IMG/VR virus record: IMGVR_UViG_3300037840_000439
Origin: an uncultured virus (IMG/VR IMGVR_UViG_3300037840_000439)
Lineage: Duplodnaviria > Heunggongvirae > Uroviricota > Caudoviricetes
Reading direction: 5' to 3' (one strand)
DNA: 64,000 bases
How positions within the stretch are numbered: position 1 is the first letter of the stretch; each line of letters opens with the position of its first letter. The notes under the pieces are model-generated. The model was not told the origin of the DNA, ran no database searches, and saw only the letters and a program-made list of their open reading frames with translations. A program made the position numbers and the translations under genes. Shown here one piece after another: positions 1 through 64,000 of this stretch.

Positions 1-925
1 TGAACGGGCCGGTGTAGGGCGTAGTCAGGGTGATTCCGTGCCCGGGAATCGCAACCACCGTGGCCACCGTGTAGAACACGCCCGGCTGCGCCAGGAACTG
101 CACCACGTTGCCGGGAACGAGGGAAGGTACCTGGTTGGCTGAGGTCCCTACGCCATTGGAGTTTGGGGTCGTGAGAAAGAACCCCGGGAGTGTTTGGGTG
201 GTCAGGAGCGAATAGTAGGATGCGGGGGTAACCGCAGCGCCCGACGTAGCGGTCGCGCCGGACGGGGCACCCGTGAGAGCCTCACCGACCAGGAACACCC
301 CTGTGGTGGCGTTGAAGATCAGGGTGCCCGCACCGTGCCCGCCATCCTCAACTTCGATCACAACCCCGGTGGCGTGGGAGGTCGCGCCCGTGACCGTGTC
401 TCCGTCCGCGAAGAGTCCTGCTTCGGCGGTGTAGAGAAGCGAGCCCACCTTGGCGCTCGCCCCCGAGGGAACCGCCGTGATCGTTTCGCCCGCACGGAAG
501 GCCCCCGTGACCGACGAGAAGAAGAGGGTTCCGGCGGTGTCGATCGCCGCAACCGTTGCGGTCGCGCCACTTGTTCCACCCGTCACGATGTCGCCGACCG
601 CAAAGGCGACCGTGACACCGAAGAAGCTCAGCGAGGCGTCTTCGAGTACCGGTGGGGTTGCTGTGGTGGGGTTGCAGGGGAAGGCTGGAGGCGCGGTCGG
701 GGCGTCCGCGCTGGTCATGTTCAAGATTACCGTTCGGGTCGCCGTCGTACTCGTGGTCGTGGTCTTGTCGCTGGCCACGGTGAGCCCGAACAGTTGACCA
801 AGCACCGGATCGTTGGTGGGGTTTGCGTAGAGCTCCACAGCCTCGAGAGCCAAGGCAGCCTTCGCGGTTCCGTAGGAGGAGCCGGCGACGTTCACGGTGT
901 AGGCGAGGGTCAATTGGTTCGGCAT
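1..925 (-). CDS. Virion structural/fibre-like protein, runs off the left edge
   Basis: Not in the ORF track. Manual translation from ATG 925 (MPNQLTLAYTVNVAG...) stays open to base 1. Four repeats: FAVGDIVTGGTSGATA, FRAGETITAVPSGASA, FADGDTVTGATSHATG, FLVGEALTGAPSGATA. Confidence 0.7.
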   Translation of the reverse strand, partial: MPNQLTLAYTVNVAGSSYGTAKAALALEAVELYANPTNDPVLGQLFGLTVASDKTTTTSTTATRTVILNMTSADAPTAPPAFPCNPTTATPPVLEDASLSFFGVTVAFAVGDIVTGGTSGATATVAAIDTAGTLFFSSVTGAFRAGETITAVPSGASAKVGSLLYTAEAGLFADGDTVTGATSHATGVVIEVEDGGHGAGTLIFNATTGVFLVGEALTGAPSGATATSGAAVTPASYYSLLTTQTLPGFFLTTPNSNGVGTSANQVPSLVPGNVVQFLAQPGVFYTVATVVAIPGHGITLTTPYTGPF

Positions 926-1224
926 GGAGTGTAGGGTAGGCGAAGAGAGGGTGGAAAGCGCGTGAGAAATGAGTGTGTGAATCACACAAAAACACGCCGA
1001 AATAGTGTGGCTCGAATCGTGGGTTGAAATGCCTCAAACAGCCACTCCTCAGCCACCAGGTACGCCACACAAAAGCCGTCTGAAAAGCCAGGGGTACGGC
1101 TTGAGGGTCACCAGGGTGGATTTCAGGGCAAAATAGGGGGTTTGGGCCTAAAAACAGCCTGGAAACACGTAAAAACATAGCAATTTCATATACTTACGTC
1201 AATATTTAACCTCGGGGGATGCCA

Positions 1225-1252
1225 GGTTATGATAATAATCCTTTTCGTAATC
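1225..1252. promoter_or_regulatory. Xer/dif-type recombination site (11-6-11)
   Basis: GGTTATGATAA-TAATCC-TTTTCGTAATC. The arms are inverted repeats (8/11 match), 25 bp upstream of the recombinase in an AT-rich gap. Confidence 0.6.
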
Positions 1253-1277
1253 TGACTTTCCCTGCTACGGTGTCAGC

Positions 1278-2639
1278 GTGCCGCGCAAACGACGACGCCT
1301 TCCTGTCACTGATCCACAGCTCGAAGCGCCCGACGTGGCTGAGGCCCACAACGACTCAGGGGACTCTCCCGCTCCCACGCTGGGATGTAAGTGGATTGAG
1401 GACGAGAAGCCCTGCCCCAACCCCTTGCCGTACCCGGATGCTGCGGGGCATGGTCAGCTCTGTAACGAGCACGTGGAAGCCGAGCTGCGAATACACTCTG
1501 CTGCGCTCACTGTTCCTTCCCCTTCCCTAGAGGGGGCGCTTGCTATCCCTCAGCCGTTCGAGGCCCCCAGTGAGCGACGGGTGTTTGAATCCTTCCTGGA
1601 GGGGCGCAGTGAGGCCACCAGGCGGGCGTACAAGGCTGACCTTGAGAGCTTCGCTGAGTTCACGGGAGATCCTGGTCCCGAGACCGCTATCGCACGGCTT
1701 CTGGCTTCGACACAGGGAGCCGCTAACGGGAAGGTGCTTGAATACCGCAATCACATCCGTGCTCAAGGGCTCTCTCCAGCGACGGTTAACCGACGCTTAG
1801 CAACGCTTCGGAGCATGGTGAAGCTCGCCAACATGCTTGGGCGGGTCTCGTGGAAGTTGGACGTGGAAGGACTCGACGTTACGGCGTACCGAGATACAGC
1901 GGGTCCTGGGCTATTAACAATTCAGGAGCTCCTCTCGGCCGTAGAGAAACGCCAGGATCCGAAGGGGAAGAGGGACCTTGCGATCTTGCGTCTGGTGTTC
2001 GACCTAGGGCTACGACGAGGAGAGGTTGTTGGACTTAATGTAGAACATGTATCCGATCGCGGAATCTCTATTCTAGGCAAGGGGCGTACAGAGCGCGAGA
2101 TACTGAAATTGCCGCCGGTAACTCGTGCAGCTATGAACGGGTGGCTTGCGATTCATCCTGGAAATGCACGTGGTGCGCTTTTCGTAAGCTTAGATCCAGC
2201 AACAGGTGGTTTAGTCCACGAGCGACTTACAGGGCATGGGATCTACGCAATTTTGTCTGCGTGGAGTACGCACATCGATAAGAAAAACATACGCCCCCAT
2301 GGTATACGGCACACAGCGATTACCACGTACCTAGAAGCATCTAATGGTAACCTCCGTGGGGCTCAGAGCTTCGCGCGTCACCGCAATGCAAACACAACAA
2401 TGCGTTACGATGACAACCGACTAGATGTTCGTGGAGAGGCTGCCGTAACGGTATCTAGGTTCCTTCCTTCGACTCGGCTCGCGACAACCACAACATCACA
2501 AGAACATGCCGCCGATGTGGTGGTAGAGATTCAAGATCCAGAAGCGCTATTGGCGCTACTGCCGGACGAGCCGAAGCCTGCACGACCAAAGAAGAAAAAA
2601 GTAACAGCCAAATGGTTCACCGAGGAGAAGGAGAAGTAG
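1278..2639 (+). CDS. Tyrosine recombinase/integrase (XerC/D-like)
   Basis: RDLAILRLVFDLGLRRGEV (R), LGKG (K), HGIRH (HxxR), ARH...TTMRY (H, Y); N-terminal core-binding region SEATRRAYKADL. Confidence 0.95.
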   Translation: MPRKRRRLPVTDPQLEAPDVAEAHNDSGDSPAPTLGCKWIEDEKPCPNPLPYPDAAGHGQLCNEHVEAELRIHSAALTVPSPSLEGALAIPQPFEAPSERRVFESFLEGRSEATRRAYKADLESFAEFTGDPGPETAIARLLASTQGAANGKVLEYRNHIRAQGLSPATVNRRLATLRSMVKLANMLGRVSWKLDVEGLDVTAYRDTAGPGLLTIQELLSAVEKRQDPKGKRDLAILRLVFDLGLRRGEVVGLNVEHVSDRGISILGKGRTEREILKLPPVTRAAMNGWLAIHPGNARGALFVSLDPATGGLVHERLTGHGIYAILSAWSTHIDKKNIRPHGIRHTAITTYLEASNGNLRGAQSFARHRNANTTMRYDDNRLDVRGEAAVTVSRFLPSTRLATTTTSQEHAADVVVEIQDPEALLALLPDEPKPARPKKKKVTAKWFTEEKEK

Positions 2640-5275: not shown

Positions 5276-5521
5276 CTAACTTACCACAGTCGGCGCTACC
5301 AGGTACTGACTCAACGCTCCGCTGGAAAGTCGGTAGCAACGACCCCACTTTGGATCGAAGAAGACCTCGGTATCGCACCCAAAGACAGGATGATTCCTGA
5401 TCATTGTTGGCATAGTTGCCATCCACCACCATCGGCGATGGTCGCCTAGCTCGCGTTTGCTGGTACGGAATGCCGTACGTATTTCTCGATGCTCCCAAGC
5501 CTTCTGCTGTCTACGCTTCAC
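5276..5521 (-). CDS. Hypothetical protein
   Basis: Probable GTG start overlapping the end of the RNA ligase; lies within track ORF 5276..5668. Confidence 0.4.
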   Translation of the reverse strand: MKRRQQKAWEHREIRTAFRTSKRELGDHRRWWWMATMPTMIRNHPVFGCDTEVFFDPKWGRCYRLSSGALSQYLVAPTVVS

Positions 5522-6173
5522 TGGAAATGCCGTTCCGGACGACCTGCTGATTTTTCCAGTGTGTGTCGGTCTGCACGTGACTTTCGCGAACCCACTTCGC
5601 AACCGATGTTTCGAACGAGGTGTCAGAGAACGACTTGGCCACCCGAATGACAACACCCTCACATACACCGCCGCAACGGGACGGCATCCGGGCGTGAAGG
5701 CCTACTAGCTCCCGGATTTTCCACTCGCGGTTGAGCCAAGACTCCCGAGCGAGGACCGGCGTGGTCGCCACACCAAGCTTCTCCGCCCATAGCTCTACTT
5801 CCGCCCAGGGCGCCCACCGGGACGTCTTCAGGTCGCGCACGCCAAAAACCATCAGGTAGCTCGGGAGAGTTTCGTAGGCGATGGAGTGCTTGGCGTAGAG
5901 CCACTCGCCAAAAACCTGGGTACCTTCGGGGATGCGGCTCTTCACGGTCGCGTGGAGCGCCTTGAAGGTGTCAAACGATACATGCTGGGGCTGCGTGGTG
6001 TGGGTTCTGGCGTAGCAGGCGTTCGTCTCAAGACAGACGTTCGAGCCGTCCATCTTCTCTGTCAGAACGATGTCCGTACAAAGGAACGCTTCCACGGACT
6101 CGATCCGGCGGTCGTCGGACGTACCACCAGGAGAGAACGGAAGATGAGGAGTACGCGGATACTTGGGAGACAT
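5511..6173 (-). CDS. ATP-dependent RNA ligase (Rnl2-like adenylation domain)
   Basis: KYPRTPHL, motif I TEKMDGSN, VFGEW, FGVRD, EGVVIR, AKWV. Confidence 0.9.
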   Translation of the reverse strand: MSPKYPRTPHLPFSPGGTSDDRRIESVEAFLCTDIVLTEKMDGSNVCLETNACYARTHTTQPQHVSFDTFKALHATVKSRIPEGTQVFGEWLYAKHSIAYETLPSYLMVFGVRDLKTSRWAPWAEVELWAEKLGVATTPVLARESWLNREWKIRELVGLHARMPSRCGGVCEGVVIRVAKSFSDTSFETSVAKWVRESHVQTDTHWKNQQVVRNGISSEA

Positions 6174-6221: not shown

Positions 6222-7700
6222 CTAAGGATAAGGCCCGTAAGATGTTGGCGCCGTAGGTGCTCCAGACGCCTCTGGGGCTACCTGAGCCTGAGCACCATAC
6301 TGAGCCACGAATGCCGCCGAAGGGTCGGGCGCGCCCGGGGCGCGGGGTCGATGCGTGTGTTTGCCCACGATCGCTTCGAGCCGCTGCGGATGGGCCAGCG
6401 GTGCGCCGGGGATCTCGTGGCTCATGCTGGCCAGTGCTGCACGAGCGACGGGCTCCGCGATGTTGAGCTGCTTGGCCAGGTCGAAGGACGAGAGCTTGGC
6501 GAGCTGCGGCGATGCAACGAGCTTCGCGACAGCATCGTGTGCCAGATTGGCTGCATCTGCTGGCAGCGCCTTCTGGACGTCCGCAATGGCACCCGGCAGG
6601 AGGTTTTGGGTCGGATTGCTCAGAGCAGAGAGGATCTTGCCTTGGTCCGGCATGAGCGCGTGCGCTGCCGCGTACCCCTTGTCTTGGAGATGCTGGGCGG
6701 TTGAGATAGCGAGCCCCGAGTCGAACGCATGCGCGACATTCGGGGGAAGCGCGTCCTTCGCGGCTGCGATCTGCGCAAGAACCGGAGCTCCCTGGGCAGC
6801 GAGTTGGTTACCCATTGCTGCACCCTGCTGAAGGGCTGCGGTCGCCGCAGGACCCACGGCTGCGCCCACGACGGCTCCGGCTGCGGACAGAATGTCCTTC
6901 GGGAGCGGTTTGCCCTGCGCGAGGTTTCCAGCAGCTGTCAAAGCTGCCGTTGCTTGAGGGGGGACGCCTGCGACGTTGGATGCGATCTTGGCCTTGTCGA
7001 CCAGGTACCCGCCGGTCGTGTGCCACGCGTCCTTGAACGCTTGACCGACGTTCTTACCGTGCAGCAAATCGTCAGCGCCGCCCAGAACAAGCGTCTTCAC
7101 GAAGAACGCCGGATTGGCTTGCTGGTAGCCCTTCGTGTACGCCGTTGCGAGGCCGTTGAGCACCTTGTTCTTGGCGAGGTCGGTGCCGATTTTTTTGCCC
7201 ACTTTCGTGTGTCCAGCCGCAGCGGCGGCGGATGCAAGAATGACGGCCGCACCAGCCCCCGGGATGAACGCGAGGGGACCGATCTTCACGGCGTCCTTTG
7301 CGATCTTGGCGACGCCCTTCCAGGGTTGGAACTTGAAGCCGACGCCGACCCCATCAAGACCTGGGAGCCGAAGACCTTCGTATCGAAACACGCCACTCAC
7401 CCCGACGCTGAAATTGGGGTCCAGGGCTGCTGCTCGGCCCAGCAGAACGCTTGCAGCCATAGGATAGGTGGGGAGGAGCGTCTGCGCGAACGCGCGGAGC
7501 TTTGCCGGATCGGACTCTTGGCCTACGGCGACTAGGACGGCGTTCTCCGTAGCCTGGGGGAGGCTTGCGTCGAACGGACGTTTGGATGCCGCGATGATGA
7601 GAGCCGAGGGTCCGTCGAGGCCGGACCGGTCGAGGCCGGACCGGTCGTAGTTGAATCCGCCCACTTTGCAACGGCCTAGGAAGATTTGTTCGTGCAGCAT
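6222..7700 (-). CDS. Ala/Gly-rich putative virion/membrane protein with leader motif
   Basis: Start reassigned to MLHEQIFLGRCKVGGF (TAGGAT 7 nt upstream; avoids overlap with the phosphatase); hydrophobic segment IGPLAFIPGAGAAVILA. Confidence 0.65.
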   Translation of the reverse strand: MLHEQIFLGRCKVGGFNYDRSGLDRSGLDGPSALIIAASKRPFDASLPQATENAVLVAVGQESDPAKLRAFAQTLLPTYPMAASVLLGRAAALDPNFSVGVSGVFRYEGLRLPGLDGVGVGFKFQPWKGVAKIAKDAVKIGPLAFIPGAGAAVILASAAAAAGHTKVGKKIGTDLAKNKVLNGLATAYTKGYQQANPAFFVKTLVLGGADDLLHGKNVGQAFKDAWHTTGGYLVDKAKIASNVAGVPPQATAALTAAGNLAQGKPLPKDILSAAGAVVGAAVGPAATAALQQGAAMGNQLAAQGAPVLAQIAAAKDALPPNVAHAFDSGLAISTAQHLQDKGYAAAHALMPDQGKILSALSNPTQNLLPGAIADVQKALPADAANLAHDAVAKLVASPQLAKLSSFDLAKQLNIAEPVARAALASMSHEIPGAPLAHPQRLEAIVGKHTHRPRAPGAPDPSAAFVAQYGAQAQVAPEASGAPTAPTSYGPYP

Positions 7701-7705
7701 GCGTT

Positions 7706-8113
7706 CTATCCTACCACCATGGCGTGAAAATGGGGGTTCGTTAGGCCGTTGCGAGCCATGCGGATCCGTTGTGCCGCCTCTCGACCGGGCAGACCCAGGT
7801 CGCGAAGTGCGAGACCCACGAGAACCCCGGAACGGTTGCGCCCCTGCATGCATGTGACTAGTACGCGCTCCCTGTGACGAACACGGTCGGCAATTTCGCG
7901 CGCGGTTCGGCGGATGAGATGGCGATCCAACTTGCTCGGTGGCGGGCCACTGTCGTCGAGCGGGACGCGGATCACGTGGTAGCCCGGTAGATCGGGGTCC
8001 TGGTACTCCATCGCGGCGAGTACGATCACGTCGAACGGAAGACCGCGGACACCGGGCGGCGGAGCACTGCCCTGAGCAAGCCAGGGACCTGGCATGAGGT
8101 ATGTGTAGCTCAT
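7706..8113 (-). CDS. Dual-specificity/PTP-family phosphatase
   Basis: VLVTCMQGRNRS (Cx5R) and acid loop PLDD; ATG 8113 overlaps the upstream stop (ATGA). Confidence 0.85.
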   Translation of the reverse strand: MSYTYLMPGPWLAQGSAPPPGVRGLPFDVIVLAAMEYQDPDLPGYHVIRVPLDDSGPPPSKLDRHLIRRTAREIADRVRHRERVLVTCMQGRNRSGVLVGLALRDLGLPGREAAQRIRMARNGLTNPHFHAMVVG

Positions 8114-8352
8114 CGGAGCTTGGCCCAAACCGCGAGCCCGGTCGCAACGCCAGCGAGGCTTGAGAAAACCCCACGTGGCGGAAGAGAGAACCCAGCCCAC
8201 ATGGCCAGCTGTGTTGCGGTCAGACCCGCGCTGATTCCCGCGAGCCATGCGGGTAGGAATACGCCTCCGGGTTCCGGTTTGCCAAGATTCAGATCCCCGA
8301 GCGAAAAACCGGTCACCCGACAACCACCATACGAGATATTCTCCAAGCTCAT
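8110..8352 (-). CDS. Small membrane protein with leader motif
   Basis: MSLENISYGGCRVTGFSLGD followed by two hydrophobic segments; ATGA-coupled at both ends. Confidence 0.7.
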   Translation of the reverse strand: MSLENISYGGCRVTGFSLGDLNLGKPEPGGVFLPAWLAGISAGLTATQLAMWAGFSLPPRGVFSSLAGVATGLAVWAKLR

Positions 8353-8546
8353 CGACCCACTCGTTTCATGAGGTACACACGGATTGCTTCTTGTGCTTCT
8401 GCGAGACGGACGTAGAGATCCGCAAGCTCCGCGTCGTATGGGCGAATTCGTTCGGCCCAATCCCGGTTCGAGGTAGACCAGGCCCCGGCGTCGTAATGCA
8501 TGCGAGCCGTCTGCCGGGCCCATCGTCGGAATTGTTCGATTGTCAT
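8349..8546 (-). CDS. Hypothetical protein
   Basis: 65-aa ORF translationally coupled to the next gene. Confidence 0.6.
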   Translation of the reverse strand: MTIEQFRRWARQTARMHYDAGAWSTSNRDWAERIRPYDAELADLYVRLAEAQEAIRVYLMKRVGR

Positions 8547-8556
8547 CGTGTATTCA

Positions 8557-8607
8557 ATACCGTGTCGATACCGTGTCGATTGTTATCGTACGTTTAGTAC
8601 CGTGTCG
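8557..8607. repeat. Three copies of TACCGTGTCG (two in tandem)
   Basis: ATACCGTGTCG at 8557 and 8568, TACCGTGTCG at 8598, just upstream of gene 8349..8546. Confidence 0.6.
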
Positions 8608-8956
8608 TAAATGAGTCGAGCTTGGGGCTCGACGGCCAGGCGAGCTTTCGCACGAGCTTGTCCACGCAAGCAGCAACTGTCTTGTTGGGCGGGTTGGTGG
8701 TGACCGTGACACCAACCGCTCGTCCCAGCTTGATTGCAACGTGGACTGTGACTTCGGTGCCGTCGGGTGTCCCACAGACCGTCAGGAAGCTCCCGACGTT
8801 GCTCATGGGCGCCGCGAGCTGGGCGTCGGTTAGGTCAGGGATCGGTGCTTTGCTCATGTCCATTTGCTGGACGTTGGCAGCGATGGCGGCTTCGTAGCTA
8901 GCGCCGCTCAGTCCGAAACCTGGGACACGACGGCTGCCAAGAGAGATACGTTCCAT
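8594..8956 (-). CDS. Leader motif fused to AgmX/PglI-C (TonB-C-like) myxobacterial domain
   Basis: MERISLGSRRVPGFGLSG, then VAIKLGRAVGVTVTTNPPNKTVAACVDKLVRKLAWPSSPKLDSFTTRY with paired Cys. Confidence 0.6.
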   Translation of the reverse strand: MERISLGSRRVPGFGLSGASYEAAIAANVQQMDMSKAPIPDLTDAQLAAPMSNVGSFLTVCGTPDGTEVTVHVAIKLGRAVGVTVTTNPPNKTVAACVDKLVRKLAWPSSPKLDSFTTRY

Positions 8957-51475: not shown

Positions 51476-51476
51476 G

Positions 51477-54365: not shown

Positions 54366-56063
54366 CTACCCCAGAATTTCTTGTGCCTTGGAAATTTCGA
54401 AAAGTGAAATCCTAACCTCTTCAGGGTCGCCACCCATAGTCGCACGCTTCTTGTACGCCTCCATGGCTAGCCCAAGTTGTTTCTTGTCTCCGCTTGCTCC
54501 ATACGCATACTGCCAACTCTGCGCTAGGAAGAATCTGTGCCGGCTGTTTTCAGGATCTTGTTTTAGCGCTCGCGTGAGTGTCTCTGCGTCGCGAACAAAC
54601 TTTTTGGGGTCCCTTGATCGACTACCGCCACCTACGACACGAATTCTCATGGTTGGGATACGTCGAGTCGGTGCCGACAGAGCGGCGCCGCAAAGGTGAT
54701 GCTCTATTGGAGCAAGATACTCGTGAAGCACGCCAACATACCTATAGATCTCAGGTCGAAATATGTGCACACGAGAATGCGTGTCATCTCCATATATGAC
54801 AGTGAGCATATACGCATCTTCGACAAGACGTGGCATCTTGAAGTTTTCTGCCAACTCCATAATGTCGTCGGCGTCAATCACAAGTACATGAGACGTCTTG
54901 CCGGTCGCCAGTTCGATAGATTCATTTCTGTTCGACGCGAAGTCCTTCCACGGACGTTCGTGAAGTTCACCAGGAACACCCTTAAGAATCCTGCTATTGC
55001 GAATTACATCTTGTGTCCCATCCATTGAACCGGTGTCTACGATTGTCCAGTGCGATATCACCTGGCGTACCGACATGAGGCAACGCTCGATAATATGCGC
55101 TTCATTTTTCACAATCATGCACAGCCCAACACCGTATGGCTCCGATTCGGATTCCACTACAACATCTAATGCATCCAAATCCGCGACCGCTGCACTGCCA
55201 ATAAATGTTTCGATGTAGCTAGGTACCAGTATGTCATTGGCGTTCATGATGATTGTGCAATCACCAGAAGCGTCTTTGTGATCACCAAGACAAACACCTA
55301 GTCGACGCGCCTCCTCCACGCTCTCATCGTCGGCATCGTCTACAACAACAATGATCTCGTGCGGTGAATACGTCTGTCCTCGTACCGATCCGACAGCAAC
55401 AGCTAGATCGTGTGCTTGCCAGTGACAAACGATGACAACGGACACCTTCTGGTTCGTGTTCTCAACTGCAACACCGCCGTATTCACCGCCGCTCGTAGAA
55501 CCCCAGAATTGCACCGCGTGTACAGGCGTATCGCCAGGCGACTCTACACCGGATAGGTGTATGGGCAGGAACGTACGCGCCGGATAAATGTACAGATCGT
55601 GTGCAAACTCTGTCAGAAGCCTGGGGCCTACCGACTCCCACGCTCGACCCTTCAGTTCGCGCGTCTCTATTGTCTTCAAGATCTCTTCAAGGAATGGCGC
55701 GCCTGGCTCAGCGCCAATGGTTCCGTTGGAAACAAGACCTGGTCGTAATGTCTCATGTTCGTACGACGCAAATGCATGATGCACAAGAAAACTTTCGTCG
55801 AGCGATGCGACACATACGCTGTCCGCGTCTACGTAGACACCACCATAGCGCTGAAGGATCTCGTAGCGAAGGATATCCGCTTTACCGCACAGCTCCGGCA
55901 TCGCGTCGATCTGCTTCCGACATCGCCAAGGAAACGATACAAGGTCGTCGTTCGTCCAAAGATGGTACTCCCAATTCGGATGCTTCTCACGCCACGTACG
56001 AAGCCATGCCGTCGGCGCTGGCCGAGAGCCTATCCATATTGCATGCAGGCGCCTCGGAATCAC
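54366..56063 (-). CDS. GT32 + GT2-like fusion glycosyltransferase
   Basis: IPRRLHAIW...ADILRY...GGVYVDAD; CMIVKNE...VDTGSMDGT...IDADD...LHE. Confidence 0.88.
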   Translation of the reverse strand: MIPRRLHAIWIGSRPAPTAWLRTWREKHPNWEYHLWTNDDLVSFPWRCRKQIDAMPELCGKADILRYEILQRYGGVYVDADSVCVASLDESFLVHHAFASYEHETLRPGLVSNGTIGAEPGAPFLEEILKTIETRELKGRAWESVGPRLLTEFAHDLYIYPARTFLPIHLSGVESPGDTPVHAVQFWGSTSGGEYGGVAVENTNQKVSVVIVCHWQAHDLAVAVGSVRGQTYSPHEIIVVVDDADDESVEEARRLGVCLGDHKDASGDCTIIMNANDILVPSYIETFIGSAAVADLDALDVVVESESEPYGVGLCMIVKNEAHIIERCLMSVRQVISHWTIVDTGSMDGTQDVIRNSRILKGVPGELHERPWKDFASNRNESIELATGKTSHVLVIDADDIMELAENFKMPRLVEDAYMLTVIYGDDTHSRVHIFRPEIYRYVGVLHEYLAPIEHHLCGAALSAPTRRIPTMRIRVVGGGSRSRDPKKFVRDAETLTRALKQDPENSRHRFFLAQSWQYAYGASGDKKQLGLAMEAYKKRATMGGDPEEVRISLFEISKAQEILG

Positions 56064-56264: not shown

Positions 56265-56569
56265 GATTTTGCAAACGGCCCCGGCATGATCGGAACAACT
56301 TTCGGTCCTGGTTTGGACTTCTTGGTCTTCTTTGTTTTGAGCGAAGCCTGTGGGAACGCACCCTGTAGCTTGTCAAACACCGACTCCACAACAGCGCGTT
56401 GCTCTTGGGTCTTTGCAGTCGCAGCGAACAGCACACGCAGTTTGTCGACATTCTCTTGCATGGTGCCGTAGAAGTTGAAACCACAGGCAAAACGAATCCC
56501 GTTACAGCAGATTACTTCGAAGTCGACATGATAATGATTACCGCACGTATCCTCTTCTTCGATTTTCAT
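56261..56569 (-). CDS. Hypothetical protein
   Basis: Start MKIEEE overlapping the upstream stop. Confidence 0.6.
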   Translation of the reverse strand: MKIEEEDTCGNHYHVDFEVICCNGIRFACGFNFYGTMQENVDKLRVLFAATAKTQEQRAVVESVFDKLQGAFPQASLKTKKTKKSKPGPKVVPIMPGPFAKS

Positions 56570-58317
56570 CCTCCACCTCCCGGCACCGTCGGTGCTCCCC
56601 ACCTTCGCGGCTTCGGCGGCTCTTCCTCATGCGAAATGGGCTGTGGCATGTCCCTGGGAGGCGGCGGCAGCTCGTCGACAGGTACCGCCACGTACCCAGG
56701 CGGGGGCTTGTAACCGGGGGTCACCTCGACGTAGCCCTCCGGAAGCGGACGTTGCTGTCGCTGCTCTTTGGCTTCGCGTTCCGCAGCAGCCTTCATGATC
56801 GCCTCGCGTTGCTCCGCAATCCACTTGAGGATGTTGCCTGCGTTTGCAACACCGGTCTCCCACTTGCGAGCCGAGCCGTCTTTCTTGTCGACGATGACGG
56901 GCCAACCGCCCACGTCCACTACCCTCACGGGGCTATCGTCGCTGGTTCTTCGATCCAGGTATCGGTCAGGCTCTGGTTCTACCGGCGGCCGAAATCGATC
57001 AGCAATACTCATGGCCAGATCAATGACCCCGGCGGCGTTATTGAACTCTTCAGCGACAGTCTTCGGGCGCTGCTGCGGGTACGGACCCGGATATCGAGGG
57101 TCCCGATATTCTTGCGGTCCGTCGGCTACACCATTGTTGTAGTAGGGACCCGATCGCATCGAGGGGCGCTGCGGATAGCCACCCGGGGGCGAGACGGGAG
57201 GAGAAGCTGGCGGCTGCACCGACCGCTGCATCCTCTCGAACATCTCGAACATCTTCCCCATCATGGCCATGGGGTCTGGCGCTGGTGCTTGCGGCTGCTG
57301 GAGCTTCTGGAGCATCCAGGCCATCATGGCGACCGGATCCGATCCTTGTGGAGGCGAAGGTGGCATCGCAGGGGTTGCCTGCGGGGTCTGCATCTGTTGG
57401 AAGAGCCGAAAGGACTCCTGCATCATCGCCAGCGGATCGGTCGACGGTGGTTGCGCGCTGGGTGCAGTAGACTGCGGTGGTTGCGCCGCCTGTTGCGCCT
57501 TCTGGAAGATCTCGAACATCTGGGTCATCATCGCCATCGGATCGGTCGACTGACCCGGGAACGAGGCGGGGGCAGGAGCCGCAACCGGCTGCGGGACCAC
57601 CGGGGCCGGACGCGCAGAGATCTGCATCTGTTGAAACAGTTCGAACATCTTGCTCATTGTGGCCAACGGATCGACTGCCGCCGGGACAACCTGCACGGTA
57701 GTCGGCACTGTCTGCGCCGGCTGCTGGTATTGCACCGGCGGAGGCTGTCCATACGGATTCATCGGTTGTCCCTGTTGCTGCTGCTGCGGCTGAACCTGCG
57801 GCGGCGTGTCGCGCGTGTCGGGCATCGTGATCCGTCCTGTGCCGCGCCGTTTCTTGTCGTTGGAGTCAAAGAGGAGCACGGTGTACGTGGCCTCTTCGAA
57901 GCGACCGTGTTGCGCCATGATCGCAGCGTAGAGATCAGCTCCCGACCTGGGTCGGCTCTTGATCACCCACTGGACGGGAGCACCACCCGTCACCCGAGTC
58001 ACAAGGATGTCGATCGTGCTCGCGGGCCAGAACTTGATGATCCCCTCGTACTTCTCGAGGAGATTTTCGATGTTGAACGGCGCACCCGGTTGGCCATCGC
58101 GCTTCTTGTTGACCATGTCTTCGATGCGACGATTCTCGCGAATGCTTTCGGCATCGGCGGCACCGGCAGCACGAAGCTTTGCTTCTTCGACTTGCAGCTC
58201 TCCGCTTTCGTCTTCGGCGGGCGTAGCACCCAGCTCAGCAACGATGTCGGACTCGTCTTGCTGCGACGGAGTTGCGGCGGCGGGAATATCGCTGGACGGT
58301 TTTCTTCTGCTGGCCAT
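56566..58317 (-). CDS. Pro/Gln/Met-rich repeat protein
   Basis: Five DPxAMMxxMFxxFQxMQ-type repeats; SD AGGAGG. Confidence 0.8.
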   Translation of the reverse strand: MASRRKPSSDIPAAATPSQQDESDIVAELGATPAEDESGELQVEEAKLRAAGAADAESIRENRRIEDMVNKKRDGQPGAPFNIENLLEKYEGIIKFWPASTIDILVTRVTGGAPVQWVIKSRPRSGADLYAAIMAQHGRFEEATYTVLLFDSNDKKRRGTGRITMPDTRDTPPQVQPQQQQQGQPMNPYGQPPPVQYQQPAQTVPTTVQVVPAAVDPLATMSKMFELFQQMQISARPAPVVPQPVAAPAPASFPGQSTDPMAMMTQMFEIFQKAQQAAQPPQSTAPSAQPPSTDPLAMMQESFRLFQQMQTPQATPAMPPSPPQGSDPVAMMAWMLQKLQQPQAPAPDPMAMMGKMFEMFERMQRSVQPPASPPVSPPGGYPQRPSMRSGPYYNNGVADGPQEYRDPRYPGPYPQQRPKTVAEEFNNAAGVIDLAMSIADRFRPPVEPEPDRYLDRRTSDDSPVRVVDVGGWPVIVDKKDGSARKWETGVANAGNILKWIAEQREAIMKAAAEREAKEQRQQRPLPEGYVEVTPGYKPPPGYVAVPVDELPPPPRDMPQPISHEEEPPKPRRWGAPTVPGGGG

Positions 58318-58328
58318 CGGATCCTCCT

Positions 58329-59075
58329 TCAGGACGGGTTCGTCTGTTGTCCGTTGGAGGGAGTCACGTTCGGTGTCGAACCAGGCTCGGGCGGGTTCTC
58401 CGGATTTTCGGGATCCGTCTCCTCTTCTTCCTCCTCTTCCTCGTCTTCGTCTTCACCACTCTCGGCGATCTCCATCTCACGGGCGAACAGGGTGGGAACC
58501 ATCGCCTCCTCGGAGAACCGCATCTGCCCAATCGGAATGAAGTGGCGCATCCCGTCGTTGCCGTCACTGGAGTAAATCTCGACGACGTCTTCCTCCACGA
58601 GGATCCGCAACACCTTCATATTGTCGTTTCCGGTGGGTGCGAACGGATTGGATTGACCGACCGTCCACACGATCGGTTCGTCTTCCGAAGGAGCCGAAGA
58701 AACCGAGTTGCTGACCAACCGACTGATCATCGGAGTTCCGGGCTTGATGACCGTTTGAGACAACTGCTCTACAAACACCTCGAGTGGCATCACCTCTTGG
58801 ATGAGCCTGATCCAGCCCATGGGCACGAAATTGCGCGTGCAAACACCATTGCTTGGTGCCGAGTAGACGTGTACACCCCCGTCGACCACGAACATGCGCA
58901 CCACCTTCATCTCCGGAACGAGCGGGTGTACCCCATCGAGTTTCCAGGAGCAGCTCCCCGGCGGCATGTCCGGAAAGAGAACGTTGCTGAGCATCCGCGT
59001 CAGCATGGGATAGCCGGGCTCGGGGAGCATGACGGAGCCTGTGATCGGTACGATATTTTGGGAAGGCGTGTTCAT
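58329..59075 (-). CDS. Protein with tandemly duplicated domain and acidic tail
   Basis: PGxPMxxRxxSN...W...P...MKVxR...VxxYS...RxFxPxG twice; poly-Glu tail. Confidence 0.75.
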   Translation of the reverse strand: MNTPSQNIVPITGSVMLPEPGYPMLTRMLSNVLFPDMPPGSCSWKLDGVHPLVPEMKVVRMFVVDGGVHVYSAPSNGVCTRNFVPMGWIRLIQEVMPLEVFVEQLSQTVIKPGTPMISRLVSNSVSSAPSEDEPIVWTVGQSNPFAPTGNDNMKVLRILVEEDVVEIYSSDGNDGMRHFIPIGQMRFSEEAMVPTLFAREMEIAESGEDEDEEEEEEEETDPENPENPPEPGSTPNVTPSNGQQTNPS

Positions 59076-59101
59076 GAGACCTGGCTCCGATGGTAGTGAG
59101 T

Positions 59102-59137
59102 GCTCCCTCTGCCGATCTGAGGGAGCTTTGTTCTTTT
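59102..59137 (+). terminator. Intrinsic terminator-like hairpin
   Basis: GCTCCCTC/GAGGGAGC followed by TTTGTTCTTTT. Confidence 0.5.
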
Positions 59138-59184
59138 GCCGTTTCTACTGACCGGCCCGGTTGGTTATGAGGTTTTTGCGCGCA

Positions 59185-59421
59185 TCAGGATATCGAAACG
59201 AGGGGCATGGTCGCGCACATCGCAGCATGCTCTTTGCAGAACCGCAGGCACGTGCTCGCCTCGGGTCCATACTTCCACACCGCCGGCTTCGGACATTCCA
59301 CTCCACCCTGCCCGTAGCCGCCGTGCATGACGATGTCGCACGACTTGTCTTCTGGCAACGCCTCACACGCCACAACAGCGGCAGTGGCGACGGTCGCCGT
59401 CAAGAAGCTCCTTCTATTCAT
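59185..59421 (-). CDS. Small Tat-type lipoprotein
   Basis: MNRRSFLTATVATAAVVAC. Confidence 0.6.
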   Translation of the reverse strand: MNRRSFLTATVATAAVVACEALPEDKSCDIVMHGGYGQGGVECPKPAVWKYGPEASTCLRFCKEHAAMCATMPLVSIS

Positions 59422-59488
59422 ACTTCGCTCCAAAGCGCAGGGAGATGGTCGTATGTGAAGAACTGCATGATCGGGTCTACGTCAGGCA

Positions 59489-60136
59489 TCAGAGCAACCC
59501 GGCTTCAAGGAAGCTGAAGTACGATTTCTTCTTCACGGTTCCACCCGCGATCACGTGATCCATGAGGATCACACCAACCGTATCAAACGCCTCGACGAAC
59601 GCCTCGGTCGTCTCCTTATCGGCGTCACTGGGCTCCGCTTCGATCCCCGAAGGATGACAGTGAAACAGAATTACTGCGTGGGCTCCGTCGATCAGTGCGG
59701 CCTGAAGAGTGGGTACGAGTGGGGCCATCACAGCAGAAGGTTCCCCACGACCGGTCTCTGCGACGCTCTTCAGCCGTAGATGCAAATCGAGCGTGAGGAG
59801 ACCGAAGACCTCGTTTACCTCGTCACCGATCGCATCTTCGATGATTTGGTACGCCTTCTTAGGCGTATTGAGCGGACCCACCTTGTCGGCGAGTGCGTTG
59901 CACGCCGCGAACTTCGCGGGGTCCTTGTTGACCACCAGGAACGGTTGGCACTTGGAACCCTTGCCTGCGGTGAGGAGAATCGGGTCAACTCCCTTGGGAG
60001 GCTTCTGGCCCGTCTTCTCCGTAATTTGCTCAGCCATCGCGCGAGCCCGCTTCGGCTCGTGGCAGCCGCAGCCGCCACCTCCGTCTTCTTTGGCACCAAC
60101 GCGACGGCGCATCTCGTTGAGGTCGTAGATTTTCAC
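59489..60136 (-). CDS. RadC-like JAB domain protein
   Basis: EVFGLLTLD, HCHPSG, PSDAD, LMDHVI. Confidence 0.9.
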   Translation of the reverse strand: MKIYDLNEMRRRVGAKEDGGGGCGCHEPKRARAMAEQITEKTGQKPPKGVDPILLTAGKGSKCQPFLVVNKDPAKFAACNALADKVGPLNTPKKAYQIIEDAIGDEVNEVFGLLTLDLHLRLKSVAETGRGEPSAVMAPLVPTLQAALIDGAHAVILFHCHPSGIEAEPSDADKETTEAFVEAFDTVGVILMDHVIAGGTVKKKSYFSFLEAGLL

Positions 60137-60552
60137 GGCCGCGCCTCTGCACCATTCTTCTTTTCCGTCTCTCGACTAGAGACCCACTCTCGCTCCCCGA
60201 TGTCCCCGAGTGGCTTCGCAGCGTCCTTGTGATCGAACGCCACGAACTCGCTGCCGCTGTCGTTTTGAACTACGAAGTCGGTCAGGGGCACGTCAGCGAT
60301 GAAAGCCCGGATGTCCTCCTCGTCAAGGAGAGGGCGAAAGCTGGTACCCCCATCGAGTTGAATGTTGCCCATTTTCGATGGGAGGACCACATCGCCAACC
60401 CTGATCCCCGCCGCCTCCGCTCCCGCACCGACCGCATCGATCAGAACAAACTTGGTGGTGTTCCTTGTTTCATCCGGCCGGACGATGAACGAGAGGAGCC
60501 TCTTGACCACGACACGACCGACAGCCTGGTTACGACGGGGAACGAATTTCAT
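60133..60552 (-). CDS. GroES-like co-chaperonin
   Basis: MKFVP...IVRPD...IDAVGAG...IRVGDVVL...DG...LLDEEDIRAFI; start reassigned to 60552. Confidence 0.6.
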   Translation of the reverse strand: MKFVPRRNQAVGRVVVKRLLSFIVRPDETRNTTKFVLIDAVGAGAEAAGIRVGDVVLPSKMGNIQLDGGTSFRPLLDEEDIRAFIADVPLTDFVVQNDSGSEFVAFDHKDAAKPLGDIGEREWVSSRETEKKNGAEARP

Positions 60553-61013
60553 TTGGGCTCCTGGAGTTGCGGCGCGGGCACTGTGTCCACGGGTTGGGTG
60601 ACTGTCGACCCCCTCAGCGCCACAAGCTCGGCCTGGCACGCACCCAACTCGGAAAGCACTTCGGAGAAATGTTCACGGCTGGGCGCGTAGTAGGGCGCGT
60701 TAGCGGCCTCTTTTGCGTCCACTGGCGCAAACTGGCGCGCAGCATTCAGGATCACGAGCGCCGCCAGCCGTAGCTCACGATCGGGGCAGTCGGGGAGACA
60801 CGGGGCCGTCTCGCTGGTCTGAGCCTCGCAACCGGCCATGTGCGTGCACCGACCGAGCAGGTTGGTCGCCTCCTTCATGGCGATATCCCACGCGTACTTG
60901 CTGCGCCATAGGGCACGTTTCTGGGCATCCCAATGGCGGACGAACACAGACACCTTCTGGTCACCCGGCGTGATCAACCCCATCAACTTGTCGTCAGTTT
61001 TGCTGCCGCTCAT
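60549..61013 (-). CDS. Hypothetical protein
   Basis: SD GAGGA; CTH...C...CLPDCPD. Confidence 0.65.
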   Translation of the reverse strand: MSGSKTDDKLMGLITPGDQKVSVFVRHWDAQKRALWRSKYAWDIAMKEATNLLGRCTHMAGCEAQTSETAPCLPDCPDRELRLAALVILNAARQFAPVDAKEAANAPYYAPSREHFSEVLSELGACQAELVALRGSTVTQPVDTVPAPQLQEPK

Positions 61014-61042
61014 GGTGTTTTTCCTCTGTGAGTTTGCCGACT

Positions 61043-61246
61043 TCAGATCGTCGCCCCATCCGGCTCTCGGATGCGCAGGTAGCCCTCTTGTGCGTGTTTG
61101 CTCGCGGCTTGGAGCAGGATCGAACGCATCCACACGCTCATCCGGACGCCGCACTCCTTGGCCCGTTGATCGATCAGCCGGTGCTGATCTGGCGTGAGCT
61201 TGAGTGTGGTGCTCTTGGTTTTCGCCTTGACGGTGTTGTGGGCCAT
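61043..61246 (-). CDS. Ribbon-helix-helix regulator
   Basis: TTLKLTPDQHRLIDQRAKECGVRMSVWMRSILL. Confidence 0.75.
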   Translation of the reverse strand: MAHNTVKAKTKSTTLKLTPDQHRLIDQRAKECGVRMSVWMRSILLQAASKHAQEGYLRIREPDGATI

Positions 61247-61350: not shown

Positions 61351-61572
61351 ATGAACCCGCCGACCCATCAACCTACACCACCAACCAATCCCCCGAACCG
61401 TTCCAGGTTCGTTGGCTTCGGCGACCAGGAAATCCGGGCCCCCGAGGCGTCTCATACTCCATCGACCCCATCTCCGTGGCGGGTCGCGCTGGTCACAACG
61501 GTTCTCGGCGCCGCCACAGGCTGGGTCATAGACGAGGTCGTGCGGGTCATCCGCGGGAAGAAGAAACAATGA
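61351..61572 (+). CDS. Small membrane protein
   Basis: RFVGFGD; hydrophobic VALVTTVLGAATGWVI; basic tail; TACAAT 8 nt upstream. Confidence 0.7.
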   Translation: MNPPTHQPTPPTNPPNRSRFVGFGDQEIRAPEASHTPSTPSPWRVALVTTVLGAATGWVIDEVVRVIRGKKKQ

Positions 61573-61895
61573 TTCAGAACGGTTCCTTTGGGATGATCCA
61601 GCGAAACGGCCGCCCCGTAAAAGGCTTCAGCCTGGGCAAGCCCCCGAGCTTCGGCCTCGGCGATCAGTGCCCTGCCGCACTTCCGAGCGGAGACGCCGCA
61701 ATGCGCCTCATGCAAGGGAAAAAGGGGGCATTTCTCGACGTAGCCGGCACGATGCTGGCGCGCAGCGCGCTCATAGCCAGCGGCCTCGCGGTTGCCGGCT
61801 TCCGTGGTACCCAGCTCCTCAAGGGGACGCTGGCGGCGGGGATGGCGGTGGAGACCTTCGTGCTCGCGTGGGCCTACAAGAACAGGGAGTCATGA
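61569..61895 (+). CDS. Membrane protein with leader motif
   Basis: MIQRNGRPVKGFSLGKPPSFGLGD; two hydrophobic segments; ATGA overlap. Confidence 0.75.
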   Translation: MIQNGSFGMIQRNGRPVKGFSLGKPPSFGLGDQCPAALPSGDAAMRLMQGKKGAFLDVAGTMLARSALIASGLAVAGFRGTQLLKGTLAAGMAVETFVLAWAYKNRES

Positions 61896-62131
61896 TGAAC
61901 CTTCGATACAACGGTCGGCAAGTTGGGCTCAGTGACGGTTTCAGCGACAAGCTCAAAGAATACGAAGATGATGTCAAGGGAGACATCCAAATCGTCAAGG
62001 ATACTCCCGGCTGGCTTAGAGTCGGCTTGGTGGCAACAGGTATGGTCCTTGGCAGCGGCCTCGTCTACGTCCTCATGCGGAACGAGGTATTGGAGACAAC
62101 GACCCACCATTACATACGGCCGGGGAAGTGA
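61892..62131 (+). CDS. Small membrane protein with shortened leader
   Basis: MMNLRYNGRQVGLSD; TM VGLVATGMVLGSGLVYVLM. Confidence 0.75.
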   Translation: MMNLRYNGRQVGLSDGFSDKLKEYEDDVKGDIQIVKDTPGWLRVGLVATGMVLGSGLVYVLMRNEVLETTTHHYIRPGK

Positions 62132-62358
62132 TGGAACGGATCAAGATTGGCGGACGGCCCGTAGCCGGGTTCGGCGTCGGTCTCGACCTCGACGAGATCG
62201 CGAATAGGTACGACCCTCTCTACAAATGCCACAACGACAAGATCGTCAAGCTCAAGGTAGTCGGTGCGGTCGTTGCTACCGCGCTGGTGACCGCAGGGAC
62301 CATCCTCTACATTTTGCCGCTCATGAAGACTGAGTACGAACTTCGAAAGAGGACGTGA
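62128..62358 (+). CDS. Small membrane protein with leader motif
   Basis: MMERIKIGGRPVAGFGVG; TM VVGAVVATALVTAGTILYIL. Confidence 0.8.
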   Translation: MMERIKIGGRPVAGFGVGLDLDEIANRYDPLYKCHNDKIVKLKVVGAVVATALVTAGTILYILPLMKTEYELRKRT

Positions 62359-63065
62359 TGGAACAGATCAGGTTTGCCGGGCGGCGAGTAGCGGGGTTCG
62401 GGGTTGGGGCTTGGTACAGCACCAACCCAATGGAGCAAGTAGAGGCTCTAGTCAAAGACTCCGACATGCGGATGCAGCAACTGACGGACGCATTCAATGC
62501 GTTCTCTCCGAAGTGGAGTGCTACCAACACGGCCACGTACAACGATTTCTTGGCTGACTACACCAGCCTTTTGTCACGTTACGCCATCGCGAAGATCCTA
62601 GCGCCTGCCGCGACTGGATTCTGGGCAACGCCGACGGATATCGAAAAGGCAACTACCGCACTTACGAAAGCATTCCGAGCCGGCGCTCCTGGTGAACAGA
62701 CGAAAGGCGATTGGGCCGATCTGGTTGAACGTCTTCGTCTCGCCCAGAAAGCAACGGGTGTTCCAGAAATGGTTGATCAGCCACCAACTGCACTTAAGAA
62801 TGTACAGAACGAAGAAAATGTCGCAGACAATTTCTACAAGGCAACGGCGAAATACGATATCCCCGCGCAACTGACGGGCGAGATGGCGCCACATGCACCT
62901 GTCCAGGCAGCTCTTGATGCGGCAGCTGCGGCAGCCAAAGCGGCTGCTGACGCGGGTAAGACGATCACCGACGCAGCCAAATGGTTCGACGACCACAAGA
63001 CCGGCATCGCGATCGGCGCAACCGTTCTAGTTGGCGGCATTCTTTACGCGATCGTCCGACGATGA
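62355..63065 (+). CDS. Helical protein with leader motif and C-terminal TM anchor
   Basis: MMEQIRFAGRRVAGFGVG; IAIGATVLVGGILYAIV-RR. Confidence 0.8.
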   Translation: MMEQIRFAGRRVAGFGVGAWYSTNPMEQVEALVKDSDMRMQQLTDAFNAFSPKWSATNTATYNDFLADYTSLLSRYAIAKILAPAATGFWATPTDIEKATTALTKAFRAGAPGEQTKGDWADLVERLRLAQKATGVPEMVDQPPTALKNVQNEENVADNFYKATAKYDIPAQLTGEMAPHAPVQAALDAAAAAAKAAADAGKTITDAAKWFDDHKTGIAIGATVLVGGILYAIVRR

Positions 63066-64000
63066 TCTCGTTCGGGGGTCAATCCGTAAGGCTTGGCGGC
63101 CGACCTGTCTGCGGCTTCTCTCTCGGTGTCGACGACAGCGACGTCGACTCGCTTGTCGCCGCGAAGCTCGCCGAAGGTGGTTATTCAGACGTCTCGGCAT
63201 ACCAACGAGCGAAGGGTCTCGCGGTCGACGGCGTAGCGGGCCACGACACGCTCACCGCGATGGGCTACGGCTACCTGTACGATCTCGCTGGACAGGGGAA
63301 GCTCAAACCAGGACAGACGCAGCTCGACACAAAGAAGACGCCGCTCACGCCCGAAAAAGCGGCACAGGCGCTTAGCACTGGTTACCAGGCGATTGCAGGC
63401 ACGGCGCCAACACCTGAAATTCTCGCGCTTCTCATCGCACAATCTGCCAGTGAGACCACCAACTGGCGAGACATCTCCAACTACAACTTCGCCGGAATCA
63501 AGGCGTCACCTGGCGACAAATATGTGCAGGCCATGGTGGATGGCAATCGAGGAAATCGTCATGTGTACGCATTTGCGGCGTACAAAACTCCGGCTGAAGG
63601 CGCCGAGAAGTACATCAGTCTGCTCAAGGCGCATGGACGCGAACCATGGTGGGAAGGACTCCAAACCGGCGACCCTGAGACATACGTGAACGCGCTTGTG
63701 TCGATTCCTGGCGCGCACTACTTCGAGGCTCCTACGGAGAAATATCTTGCCAGCGTTCGGGCTGGTGTTGCTCGATTCGCTGACTTGGCGCGGCAGTACG
63801 CAACAAGCAATGCAGCTGACACCTTCTACAAGAAGGCTGCTCCGTACGACGTCGTCGCGCAAGTAACCGGTAAGCAGGCACCCAGTGCACCTGTCAAGGT
63901 TGCCGTCAACGTAGCTAAGACTACGTTCGAAGAAGTGGTCAAGGCTCAAGGGTGGGTCGACAAGAACAAGACGTGGATAGCGGTCGGAGCTACGGTCTTG
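63062..64000 (+). CDS. Leader + PG-binding + GH73 (FlgJ-like) muramidase/glucosaminidase, runs off the right edge
   Basis: Not in the track. Manual translation MISFGGQSVRLGGRPVCGFSLG...AYQRAKGLAVDGVAGHDTL...LIAQSASET...NYNFAGIKA...FAAYKTPAEGAEKYISLL...WIAVGATVL. Confidence 0.8.
   Translation, partial: MISFGGQSVRLGGRPVCGFSLGVDDSDVDSLVAAKLAEGGYSDVSAYQRAKGLAVDGVAGHDTLTAMGYGYLYDLAGQGKLKPGQTQLDTKKTPLTPEKAAQALSTGYQAIAGTAPTPEILALLIAQSASETTNWRDISNYNFAGIKASPGDKYVQAMVDGNRGNRHVYAFAAYKTPAEGAEKYISLLKAHGREPWWEGLQTGDPETYVNALVSIPGAHYFEAPTEKYLASVRAGVARFADLARQYATSNAADTFYKKAAPYDVVAQVTGKQAPSAPVKVAVNVAKTTFEEVVKAQGWVDKNKTWIAVGATVL

Follow-up and report, generated by a model that had tools for sequence, protein, structure and literature searches.

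The window analysed here, i.e. the whole stretch of 64,000 nucleotides (58.5% G+C) of the uncultured virus record IMGVR_UViG_3300037840_000439, comprises roughly half of the probably circular genome, 105–128 kb in length, of an uncultivated soil virus. Its hallmark is p438, a protein of 438 amino acids encoded at positions 36214–37530 on the minus strand, which defines a large, so far undescribed family. Taken together, the predicted folds of p438 and its neighbour p198, the conserved order of the surrounding genes and the outcome of searches for the hallmark genes of tailed phages make it reasonably probable that this family consists of tailless jelly-roll viruses enclosing a membrane and protein-condensed DNA.

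The p438 family and its conserved gene module

Searches with p438 returned 405 metagenome relatives at E ≤ 1e-3, and the best 120 of these 405 share 69–97% identity with it and lie on contigs of up to 163 kb. Among library clusters built at 50% identity, 174 are related to p438, and none of the 174 has a Pfam domain on record. IMG/VR contains 32 loci, and 5 more contigs came to light when distant members served as queries, giving 37 contigs altogether; two further scans with distant p438 relatives yielded no viral contig. Moreover, no homolog was found in 50,697 deposited phage records and 72,556 plasmids, and no description of the family was found in the literature searched, in which most subscription journals were not covered. 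Near-identical DNA is present in soil metagenomes of several studies, and no RNA data set is among the sequencing runs listed for it.

CheckV classed nine of the 10 records checked as complete, and five of the 10, with total lengths of 124,600, 116,275, 111,461, 127,529 and 105,511 bp, have terminal repeats. The repeats measured in two records are 127 and 87 bp long, lengths typical of assembler word sizes, so that circular or circularly permuted genomes are probable. The genomes of the tailless, membrane-containing viruses known from bacteria and archaea measure ~10–30 kb. The initial annotation, made from the sequence alone, had stated that the segment far exceeds known tectiviruses and corticoviruses in length; this is borne out by the relatives of 105–128 kb, whose genomes are roughly tenfold larger than those of the bacterial viruses of this type known so far. 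One relative classed complete, G004, contains an IS1595-family transposase (L043:17269-18303).

Across the 32 loci the genes follow a common order, namely p201, p168, RadC, p248, p583, p217, the transglutaminase-like gene, p792, p438, p198, p302, p284, the gene for a LysM protein and three genes for small proteins. This conserved particle module spans ~20 kb and is represented in the window by the following features:

31321..32107, minus strand: three small conserved proteins of 80, 95 and 69 amino acids, present in 15, 18 and 21 of the 32 loci, respectively
32111..34358, minus strand: the LysM protein (495 amino acids, 32114-33598; LysM E 2.1e-6; 26/32 loci) and p284 (33504-34358; 30/32 loci), both tail-anchored
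34591..35499, minus strand: p302, completing the conserved shell triad (32/32 loci, also in a distant subgroup)
35525..36121, minus strand: p198, predicted shell protein of single jelly-roll type
36214..37530, minus strand: p438, family hallmark and presumed major shell protein with a jelly-roll core and a large insertion
37672..40050, minus strand: p792, with a protamine-like Arg-rich arm and hydrophobic segments (30/32 loci)
40844..42523, minus strand: transglutaminase-like cysteine protease split by an intein of ~330 amino acids, as seen by comparison with the intein-free G004 homolog
56566..61154, minus strand: downstream block with p583, p248, a RadC-like JAB protein, p168 and p201 in the same order (23, 22, 20, 12 and 16 of 32 loci, respectively)

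A subgroup with 41–45% p438 identity retains the transglutaminase-like gene together with the p438-p198-p302 triad. The window aligns with positions ~65–101 kb of G004 and contains, besides, inserted blocks of fibre and glycosylation genes. The replication genes of G004 (a DnaG-like primase, XPD-like and SNF2-like helicases) are not homologous to those of a second relative, G001 (Prim-Pol, UvrD-like and SF1 helicases, AAA_24), whereas the particle module is common to both. A constant structural module combined with exchanged replication genes is a pattern that typifies viruses rather than plasmids. Likewise, the region does not look like a non-viral chromosomal island, the possibility raised at the outset: no host housekeeping gene was seen in the window, the module is syntenic in the 32 IMG/VR loci, and relatives in the GTDB species genomes amount to three short contigs in two metagenome-assembled genomes (Binatia, Polyangiaceae).

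Predicted shell proteins, membrane anchors and presumed DNA condensation

The model of p198, based on 31 sequences (pLDDT 85.3, pTM 0.77), has eight strands, and that of p438, based on 81 sequences (pLDDT 82.9, pTM 0.82), is mostly beta. For p198, Foldseek placed the capsid chains of SH1, HHIV-2 and SPV1 within the first seven rows, with E values of 1–3e-3. The aligned part of p438 corresponds to one jelly-roll made up of residues ~47–128 and 375–415 with a long insertion in between. In a wide search its top rows comprised SPV1 (5.8), HCIV-1 (5.6), HHIV-2 (5.4), D13 (5.3), PBCV-1 (5.2) and PRD1 (5.1), with discoidin and carbohydrate-binding domains intermixed with the capsids, and a second look gave PRD1 P3 (6.2, 159 aligned), STIV (5.9), SPV1 (5.8) and an iridovirus capsid (5.8) as top rows, all of these structure-match scores being in the range that the tool calls middling. 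The best structural matches of both proteins are capsid proteins of membrane-containing tailless viruses, and neither model has an HK97-fold chain in the rows shown. These scores support a predicted fold of the jelly-roll type for p438 and p198 and would fit a capsid role, while kinship with any virus family is not proven by them.

When p438, p198 and p302 were compared with PDB chains by sequence, nothing below E 0.1 was returned. In addition, p438 has no Pfam or PHROGs match, p302 has neither a family match nor a usable Atlas match, the Atlas contains no model of p438 or p302, and profile comparisons among the three proteins revealed no relation. A language model places p438 exclusively next to small viral capsids (scores of 0.84–0.88), which we take as a lead only.

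Several proteins of the window share a short N-terminal motif, hereafter referred to as the tag, of the form [RKCQ]-x-[VI]-x-G-F-x-[LVIYFM]-[GSDN]. It is present in eight open reading frames (ORFs) of the window, in seven of which a Met lies at most 20 residues upstream, and a scan of six genomes together gave 21 hits as compared to 0 in reversed-sequence controls. Most of the tagged proteins have a hydrophobic anchor further on, in several cases at the very C-terminus; in p284 the tag copy is internal. Residues 21–29 of p438 resemble the tag as well, and the two glycines at this site are nearly invariant in the family. As the initial annotation had noticed, tail-anchored membrane proteins are encoded here: hydropathy analysis of the called genes revealed a single strong hydrophobic stretch, ending 12–19 residues before the C-terminus, in four of them (2884-3777, 31571-31855, 32114-33598 and 62128-62355), and two tagged ORFs (33504-34358 and 62355-63065) have the same layout.

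Directly upstream of p438 lies the gene for p792 (792 amino acids), in which residues 151–400 have a net charge of +93 and weak-to-moderate hydrophobic segments follow at residues 384–402 and 450–468. The pairing of a protamine-like protein with a beta-rich capsid candidate, likewise pointed out before, therefore holds, as the +93 arm belongs to a protein adjoining the mostly-beta p438. We presume that p792 acts as a DNA condenser that is tied to the membrane. Moreover, by analogy with SPV1, PRD1 and the cores of adenoviruses, we infer that the tag would be an address label or a processing site, that the anchors would reside in the virion membrane, and that p792 would tie the condensed DNA to it. 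Concerning the previously suggested architecture of a jelly-roll virus with an internal membrane, two conserved beta-sandwich models with capsids as best matches lend substance to the shell, whereas the membrane is a putative one, for which the tail-anchored, tagged proteins are an indirect sign.

Based on these features, p438, p198 and perhaps p302 would build a tailless icosahedral shell, and a lipid membrane beneath it would hold the tagged, tail-anchored proteins, including cell-wall hydrolases for entry or exit. The tag might fasten proteins under the shell or mark them for processing. By condensing the DNA and tying it to the membrane, p792 could allow the particle to form round a nucleoprotein core, without filling by a motor, as in SPV1. 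The host would be recognised by collagen-like fibres and a depolymerase-like spike, virus-encoded glycosylation genes would decorate the fibres or the shell, and the integrase would make lysogeny possible.

Hallmark searches, rival explanations and known systems

The Pfam and PHROGs scans took in 56 window ORFs, and the NCBIfam scan 45 window proteins. In line with the initial annotation, which had recognised no terminase, portal, sheath or tape measure, none of the 56 ORFs matched a terminase, portal, capsid, sheath, tube or tape-measure family, and no ORF of the window has a classical Walker A of the FtsK/HerA type. Relatives, including ones classed complete, were subjected to six-frame sequence searches, other portal and capsid families being covered via ORF scans only. 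Terminase_6N was found in 0/10 relatives, TerL_ATPase, Phage_portal, Phage_capsid and Pox_A32 in 0/5 each, and FtsK_SpoIIIE in 0/5 above the cut-off, with one match of 11 bits. Correspondingly, neither G004 (Pfam, PHROGs) nor G001 (Pfam) yielded a terminase, a portal or an HK97 capsid, and the Pfam scans of both genomes revealed no protein-primed polymerase and no polymerase B.

HerA_C exceeded the cut-off in one of the 10 relatives, G001, and a truncated copy is present in G003; none was found in the other eight. The G001 protein (L038:6970-8739, 590 amino acids, above the Pfam cut-offs) is encoded beside ParB and ThyX, outside the particle module, and has a 59% identical relative on a 61-kb family contig, whereas the G003 copy (L070:9946-10584, 213 amino acids) is truncated after ~110 residues. 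Judged by this distribution, the HerA-like ATPase is an accessory gene and not the common packaging enzyme of the family. The comparison of FtsK/HerA-type ATPase versus terminase and portal that had been proposed as a check, here run on the relatives, detected neither terminase nor portal and revealed no packaging ATPase among the core genes. A partial relative of the 343-amino-acid protein adjoining the HerA-like gene of G001 is present in G002.

Four other explanations were weighed. It is very unlikely that the window derives from a tailed phage with head, packaging and tail genes too diverged to be recognised. The collagen-like proteins and the beta-helix domain do match PHROGs 'tail fibre' and 'tailspike' families, and G004 has a weak tape-measure match (E 1e-4) and a 'baseplate hub' match (E 4.9e-13), but these PHROGs matches are located in a low-complexity region, in collagen repeats and in a terminal domain that looks like an enzyme. 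A large terminase is as a rule readily recognised, and the failure to find a terminase in any of the 10 relatives and a portal or HK97 capsid in any of the five, together with the lack of HK97-fold chains among the rows shown, argues against this explanation. We regard it as unlikely that the family belongs to the double jelly-roll realm as an overgrown tectivirus- or corticovirus-like virus, with a double roll in p438 and a diverged FtsK/HerA-type ATPase that fills a preformed shell. In p438 one roll alone aligned, ~110–160 residues drawn from both ends of the protein, and the middle looks like an insertion; furthermore, the ATPase searches gave HerA_C in 1/10, Pox_A32 in 0/5 and FtsK as the single match at 11 bits, and the HerA-like gene of G001 is situated beside ParB/ThyX instead of in the particle module.

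A non-viral mobile element, i.e. a large plasmid or integrative element in which p438 and p198 are surface or secreted beta-sandwiches and the collagen and glycosylation genes build a surface layer, appears improbable as well. Pfam scans of G004 (67 proteins) and G001 (73 proteins) gave no match to relaxases, to type IV secretion or to plasmid replication families, no p438 homolog was found in the plasmids searched, relatives in the GTDB species genomes are limited to the three short contigs, the p438 module is the conserved core while replication genes are swapped, and a protamine-like protein together with a common tag fits a particle better. Very unlikely, too, is a virus of soil eukaryotes related to the large nucleocytoplasmic viruses: collagen-like fibres, own glycosylation genes and the capsid-like structures matched in PBCV-1, EhV and faustovirus would suit it, but the bacterial-type genes (DnaG-like primase, ParB, tyrosine integrase, RadC, LysM, peptidoglycan-binding), the lack of an A32 ATPase in the searches, and the dense one-stranded coding with no sign of introns speak against it.

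The following points weigh against the tailless jelly-roll virus proposed here. Foldseek searches against PDB and BFVD gave no match at E ≤ 1e-3, so that the structural check proposed in the initial annotation produced capsid chains among the top rows of p198 and no match at this threshold. Scores equal to those of the capsids were obtained with non-viral beta-sandwiches (peptidylglycine monooxygenase, discoidin, CBM32), and the jelly-roll models cover p438 and p198 and not p302. The family is known from genes alone, and both the internal membrane, which is read from the tail-anchored, tagged proteins, and the mechanism of condensation are inferred. Finally, some family members may use a motor, a diverged motor elsewhere could escape detection, and the hallmark screen of the virus's own genome covers the half in the window.

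We consider SPV1 (Portogloboviridae, PDB 6oj0) to be the closest working analogue of the p438 family and PRD1-like viruses to be the closest bacterial analogues. As described in PMC8459092, SPV1 combines a single jelly-roll shell, a lipid layer, a nucleoprotein core and a circular genome. There is no sequence similarity between SPV1 and the p438 family, and SPV1 has a genome of ~20 kb and infects hyperthermophilic archaea, whereas the p438 family has genomes of 105–128 kb, derives from soil metagenomes and contains bacterial-type genes. Further differences from SPV1 are the shell protein of 438 amino acids bearing a large insertion, the tag, the glycosylation genes, the collagen fibres and a membrane-anchored protein of protamine-like character. 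PRD1 and PM2 (Tectiviridae, Corticoviridae) have genomes of 10–15 kb. Hallmarks of these families are a capsid protein with a double jelly-roll and a packaging ATPase of the FtsK/HerA type, whereas in p438 only one roll aligned, the ATPase is not a core gene, and a protein-primed polymerase was not found in G001 and G004. Neither SPV1 nor PRD1-like viruses are known to have the features that the p438 family adds, namely a shell protein with an insertion, a protamine-like protein with a membrane anchor, the tag, collagen-like fibres and a glycosylation island.

The haloarchaeal and Thermus viruses SH1, HHIV-2, HCIV-1 and P23-77, which have two single jelly-roll capsid proteins, possess genomes of 16–31 kb and a packaging ATPase, and their structural matches to the family proteins are no better than those of other jelly-rolls. 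In adenovirus, the shell of which is likewise built of jelly-rolls, the enclosed DNA is condensed by the Arg-rich core proteins VII and mu; they differ from p792, which has hydrophobic segments and long non-basic domains, and the host of adenovirus is eukaryotic. The V-x-G-F-G shape of the tag may resemble adenoviral protease sites, and no adenain-like protease was found. Virus-encoded glycosylation genes combined with collagen-like or fibre proteins are known from the mimivirus fibrils and the chlorovirus capsid. Mimivirus and chlorovirus are giant viruses of eukaryotes with an A32 ATPase and PolB, neither of which was found here (Pox_A32 0/5; Pfam scans of G004 and G001).

The family is widespread in soil, and confirmation of a tailless particle would mean, contrary to the present view, that not all large viruses of bacteria have tails; it would also add a second case, this one bacterial, of particles assembled on a nucleoprotein core. 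We further propose, as a tentative possibility, that the family represents a lineage of bacterial viruses that branches deeply, possibly at the level of a realm: tailless, membrane-containing, of 105–128 kb, with motor-less assembly of the jelly-roll shell on DNA condensed by a membrane-anchored protamine-like protein, tag-fastened membrane proteins and collagen-like fibrils dressed by the virus's own glycosylation genes. If true, this lineage would be a bacterial counterpart to the complexity of eukaryotic giant viruses. According to a recent review (PMC13598248), large genomes have been attained in no more than two realms, and 8/10 realms remain at ≤ ~60 kb. Two features are directly testable, namely the putative common address tag on the membrane proteins of the particle and the putative virus-encoded glycosylation of the fibres.

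With regard to the host, the bacterial-type genes and cell-wall-binding domains appear to point to a bacterium. The assignment to Myxococcota made in the initial annotation was not supported: it would be backed by one metagenome-assembled genome with short contigs, the Polyangiaceae genome itself, which is the sole match among 401 sampled genomes of the phylum (1/401), and the G+C content of the window is 58.5%. Similarly, the AgmX-like domain that had served as a host cue was not recovered, as neither NCBIfam (45 proteins) nor Pfam revealed this domain or a Myxococcota-specific family.

Fibres, glycosylation genes and other features of the window

Coding is nearly one-stranded, as the called genes add up to 47.7 kb on the minus and 7.8 kb on the plus strand, and a tRNA scan and an Rfam search of the window revealed no tRNA and no Rfam family. 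Outside the particle module the following features were identified:

2..985, minus strand: conserved repeat protein, N-terminal 328 amino acids, the rest being cut by the window edge (homologs in 5/5 complete relatives, 41–51% identity)
1278..2639, plus strand: tyrosine integrase (Phage_integrase E 4.1e-17, 62.9 bits, cut-off 27.1; phrog_1 E 2.7e-32)
5511..6173, minus strand: RNA ligase (PF09414 E 5.1e-30; phrog_24030 E 2.2e-50)
within 6222..8956, minus strand: three tagged proteins with starts near 7670, 8322 and 8932 (tag scan)
7706-8323, minus strand: dual-specificity-phosphatase-like gene (DSPc E 8.1e-5, below cut-off)
9193..10083, minus strand: M23-like peptidase with a C-terminal hydrophobic anchor (Peptidase_M23 E 5.7e-6, 26.9 bits, missing the cut-off of 28.7)
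18122..31165, minus strand: fibre/decoration block (Pfam Collagen, Pect-lyase_RHGA_epim, Glycos_transf_2, Methyltransf_24)
21803-26443, minus strand: two large glycosyltransferase/methyltransferase proteins between the collagen-like genes (Pfam)
44751..56063, minus strand: glycosylation island of ~11–12 genes (Pfam: glycosyltransferases, methyltransferases, NAD epimerase/dehydratase, B12-binding radical SAM)
61476..64000, plus strand: four consecutive tagged proteins (tag scan), the last cut by the window edge and containing PG_binding_1 and a glucosaminidase-like domain

The fibres noted in the initial annotation correspond to three collagen-repeat proteins, encoded at 27788-31165 (E 2.4e-49), 20242-21759 (E 3.3e-12) and 18122-20227; in the latter the collagen match is below the cut-off and is accompanied by a pectate-lyase-like domain (E 7.8e-10; all Pfam). 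The PHROGs 'tail fibre' matches in this block fall on the collagen repeats. The largest collagen-like gene contains a perfect 72-bp tandem repeat (30078-30289; 2.9 copies, 100% matches), which suggests a recent expansion of the fibre. The glycosylation island, whose B12-binding radical SAM enzyme is encoded at 47386-49005, was not found as a whole at the equivalent place in G001 and G004, and elsewhere in these genomes only scattered weak single-gene matches were obtained.

The cell-wall enzymes noted at the outset were verified in part. LysM (28 bits, cut-off 20.9) and PG_binding_1 in 62981-64000 (25.5 bits, cut-off 23) pass the Pfam cut-offs, whereas M23 (26.9 versus 28.7), SLT (16.5 versus 21.3) and glucosaminidase (26.8 versus 30.2) remain below them; the anchor of the M23-like protein was read off the translation. 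The integrase, in contrast, was confirmed with 62.9 bits, and G004 also has an integrase at the equivalent place.

The product of 2..985, for which PHROGs gave phrog_358 only, as a weak match, is a candidate vertex or spike protein. A candidate variable spike is encoded at 12216-13694 (minus strand); this protein of 492 amino acids is rich in Ser, Thr, Asn and Gly, contains repeated short beta-like units, lacks a family match and has a relative in 1/32 loci. The phosphatase-like gene at 7706-8323 shares 63–74% identity with its counterparts in G001 and G004. Two candidate assignments were rejected: the tagged protein of 482 amino acids at 6222-7670 is unrelated to the 698-amino-acid G004 protein with the weak tape-measure match, and a papain-like reading of 16559-17551 found no family support and no relatives in the 32 loci.

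The intein of the transglutaminase-like protein is inserted exactly before the Cys of the catalytic-type GGD-C sequence. Transglut_core matches the G004 homolog with E 1.3e-3, below the cut-off, and Hint the window protein with E 0.002. Matches of the full intein-bearing length (~1.6 kb) were seen in four of 27 related loci (L009, L020, L024, L029) and also in L103, whereas G004 and the remaining ones are without intein. A UvrD-like helicase of G001 (L036:16670-19087) has Intein_splicing and Hint_2 matches, both below the cut-off, and would carry a second intein of the family.

Further observations concern the module and its surroundings. The 95-amino-acid protein encoded within 31321..32107 has two hydrophobic segments by hydropathy, and the RadC-like protein of the downstream block matches RadC with E 3.3e-22. 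In the same block, the Pro/Gln-rich p583 (56566-58317, minus strand) contains five amphipathic repeats of the type D-P-[MLV]-A-[MT]-M ... F-x-x-F-Q-x-x-Q with proline-rich linkers between them, and could be a scaffold or ruler protein. In L002, L004, L008, L016, L028 and L090, the p198 and p302 homologs are separated by a gap of 0.7–1.2 kb, which may hold an extra gene that the window is without. Just beyond the range homologous to the window, G004 encodes at 58.8–65.1 kb (L043/L047/L044) five very acidic conserved proteins of 288, 689, 369, 245 and 197 amino acids, which were found in 3–4 of the 4 other complete genomes compared.

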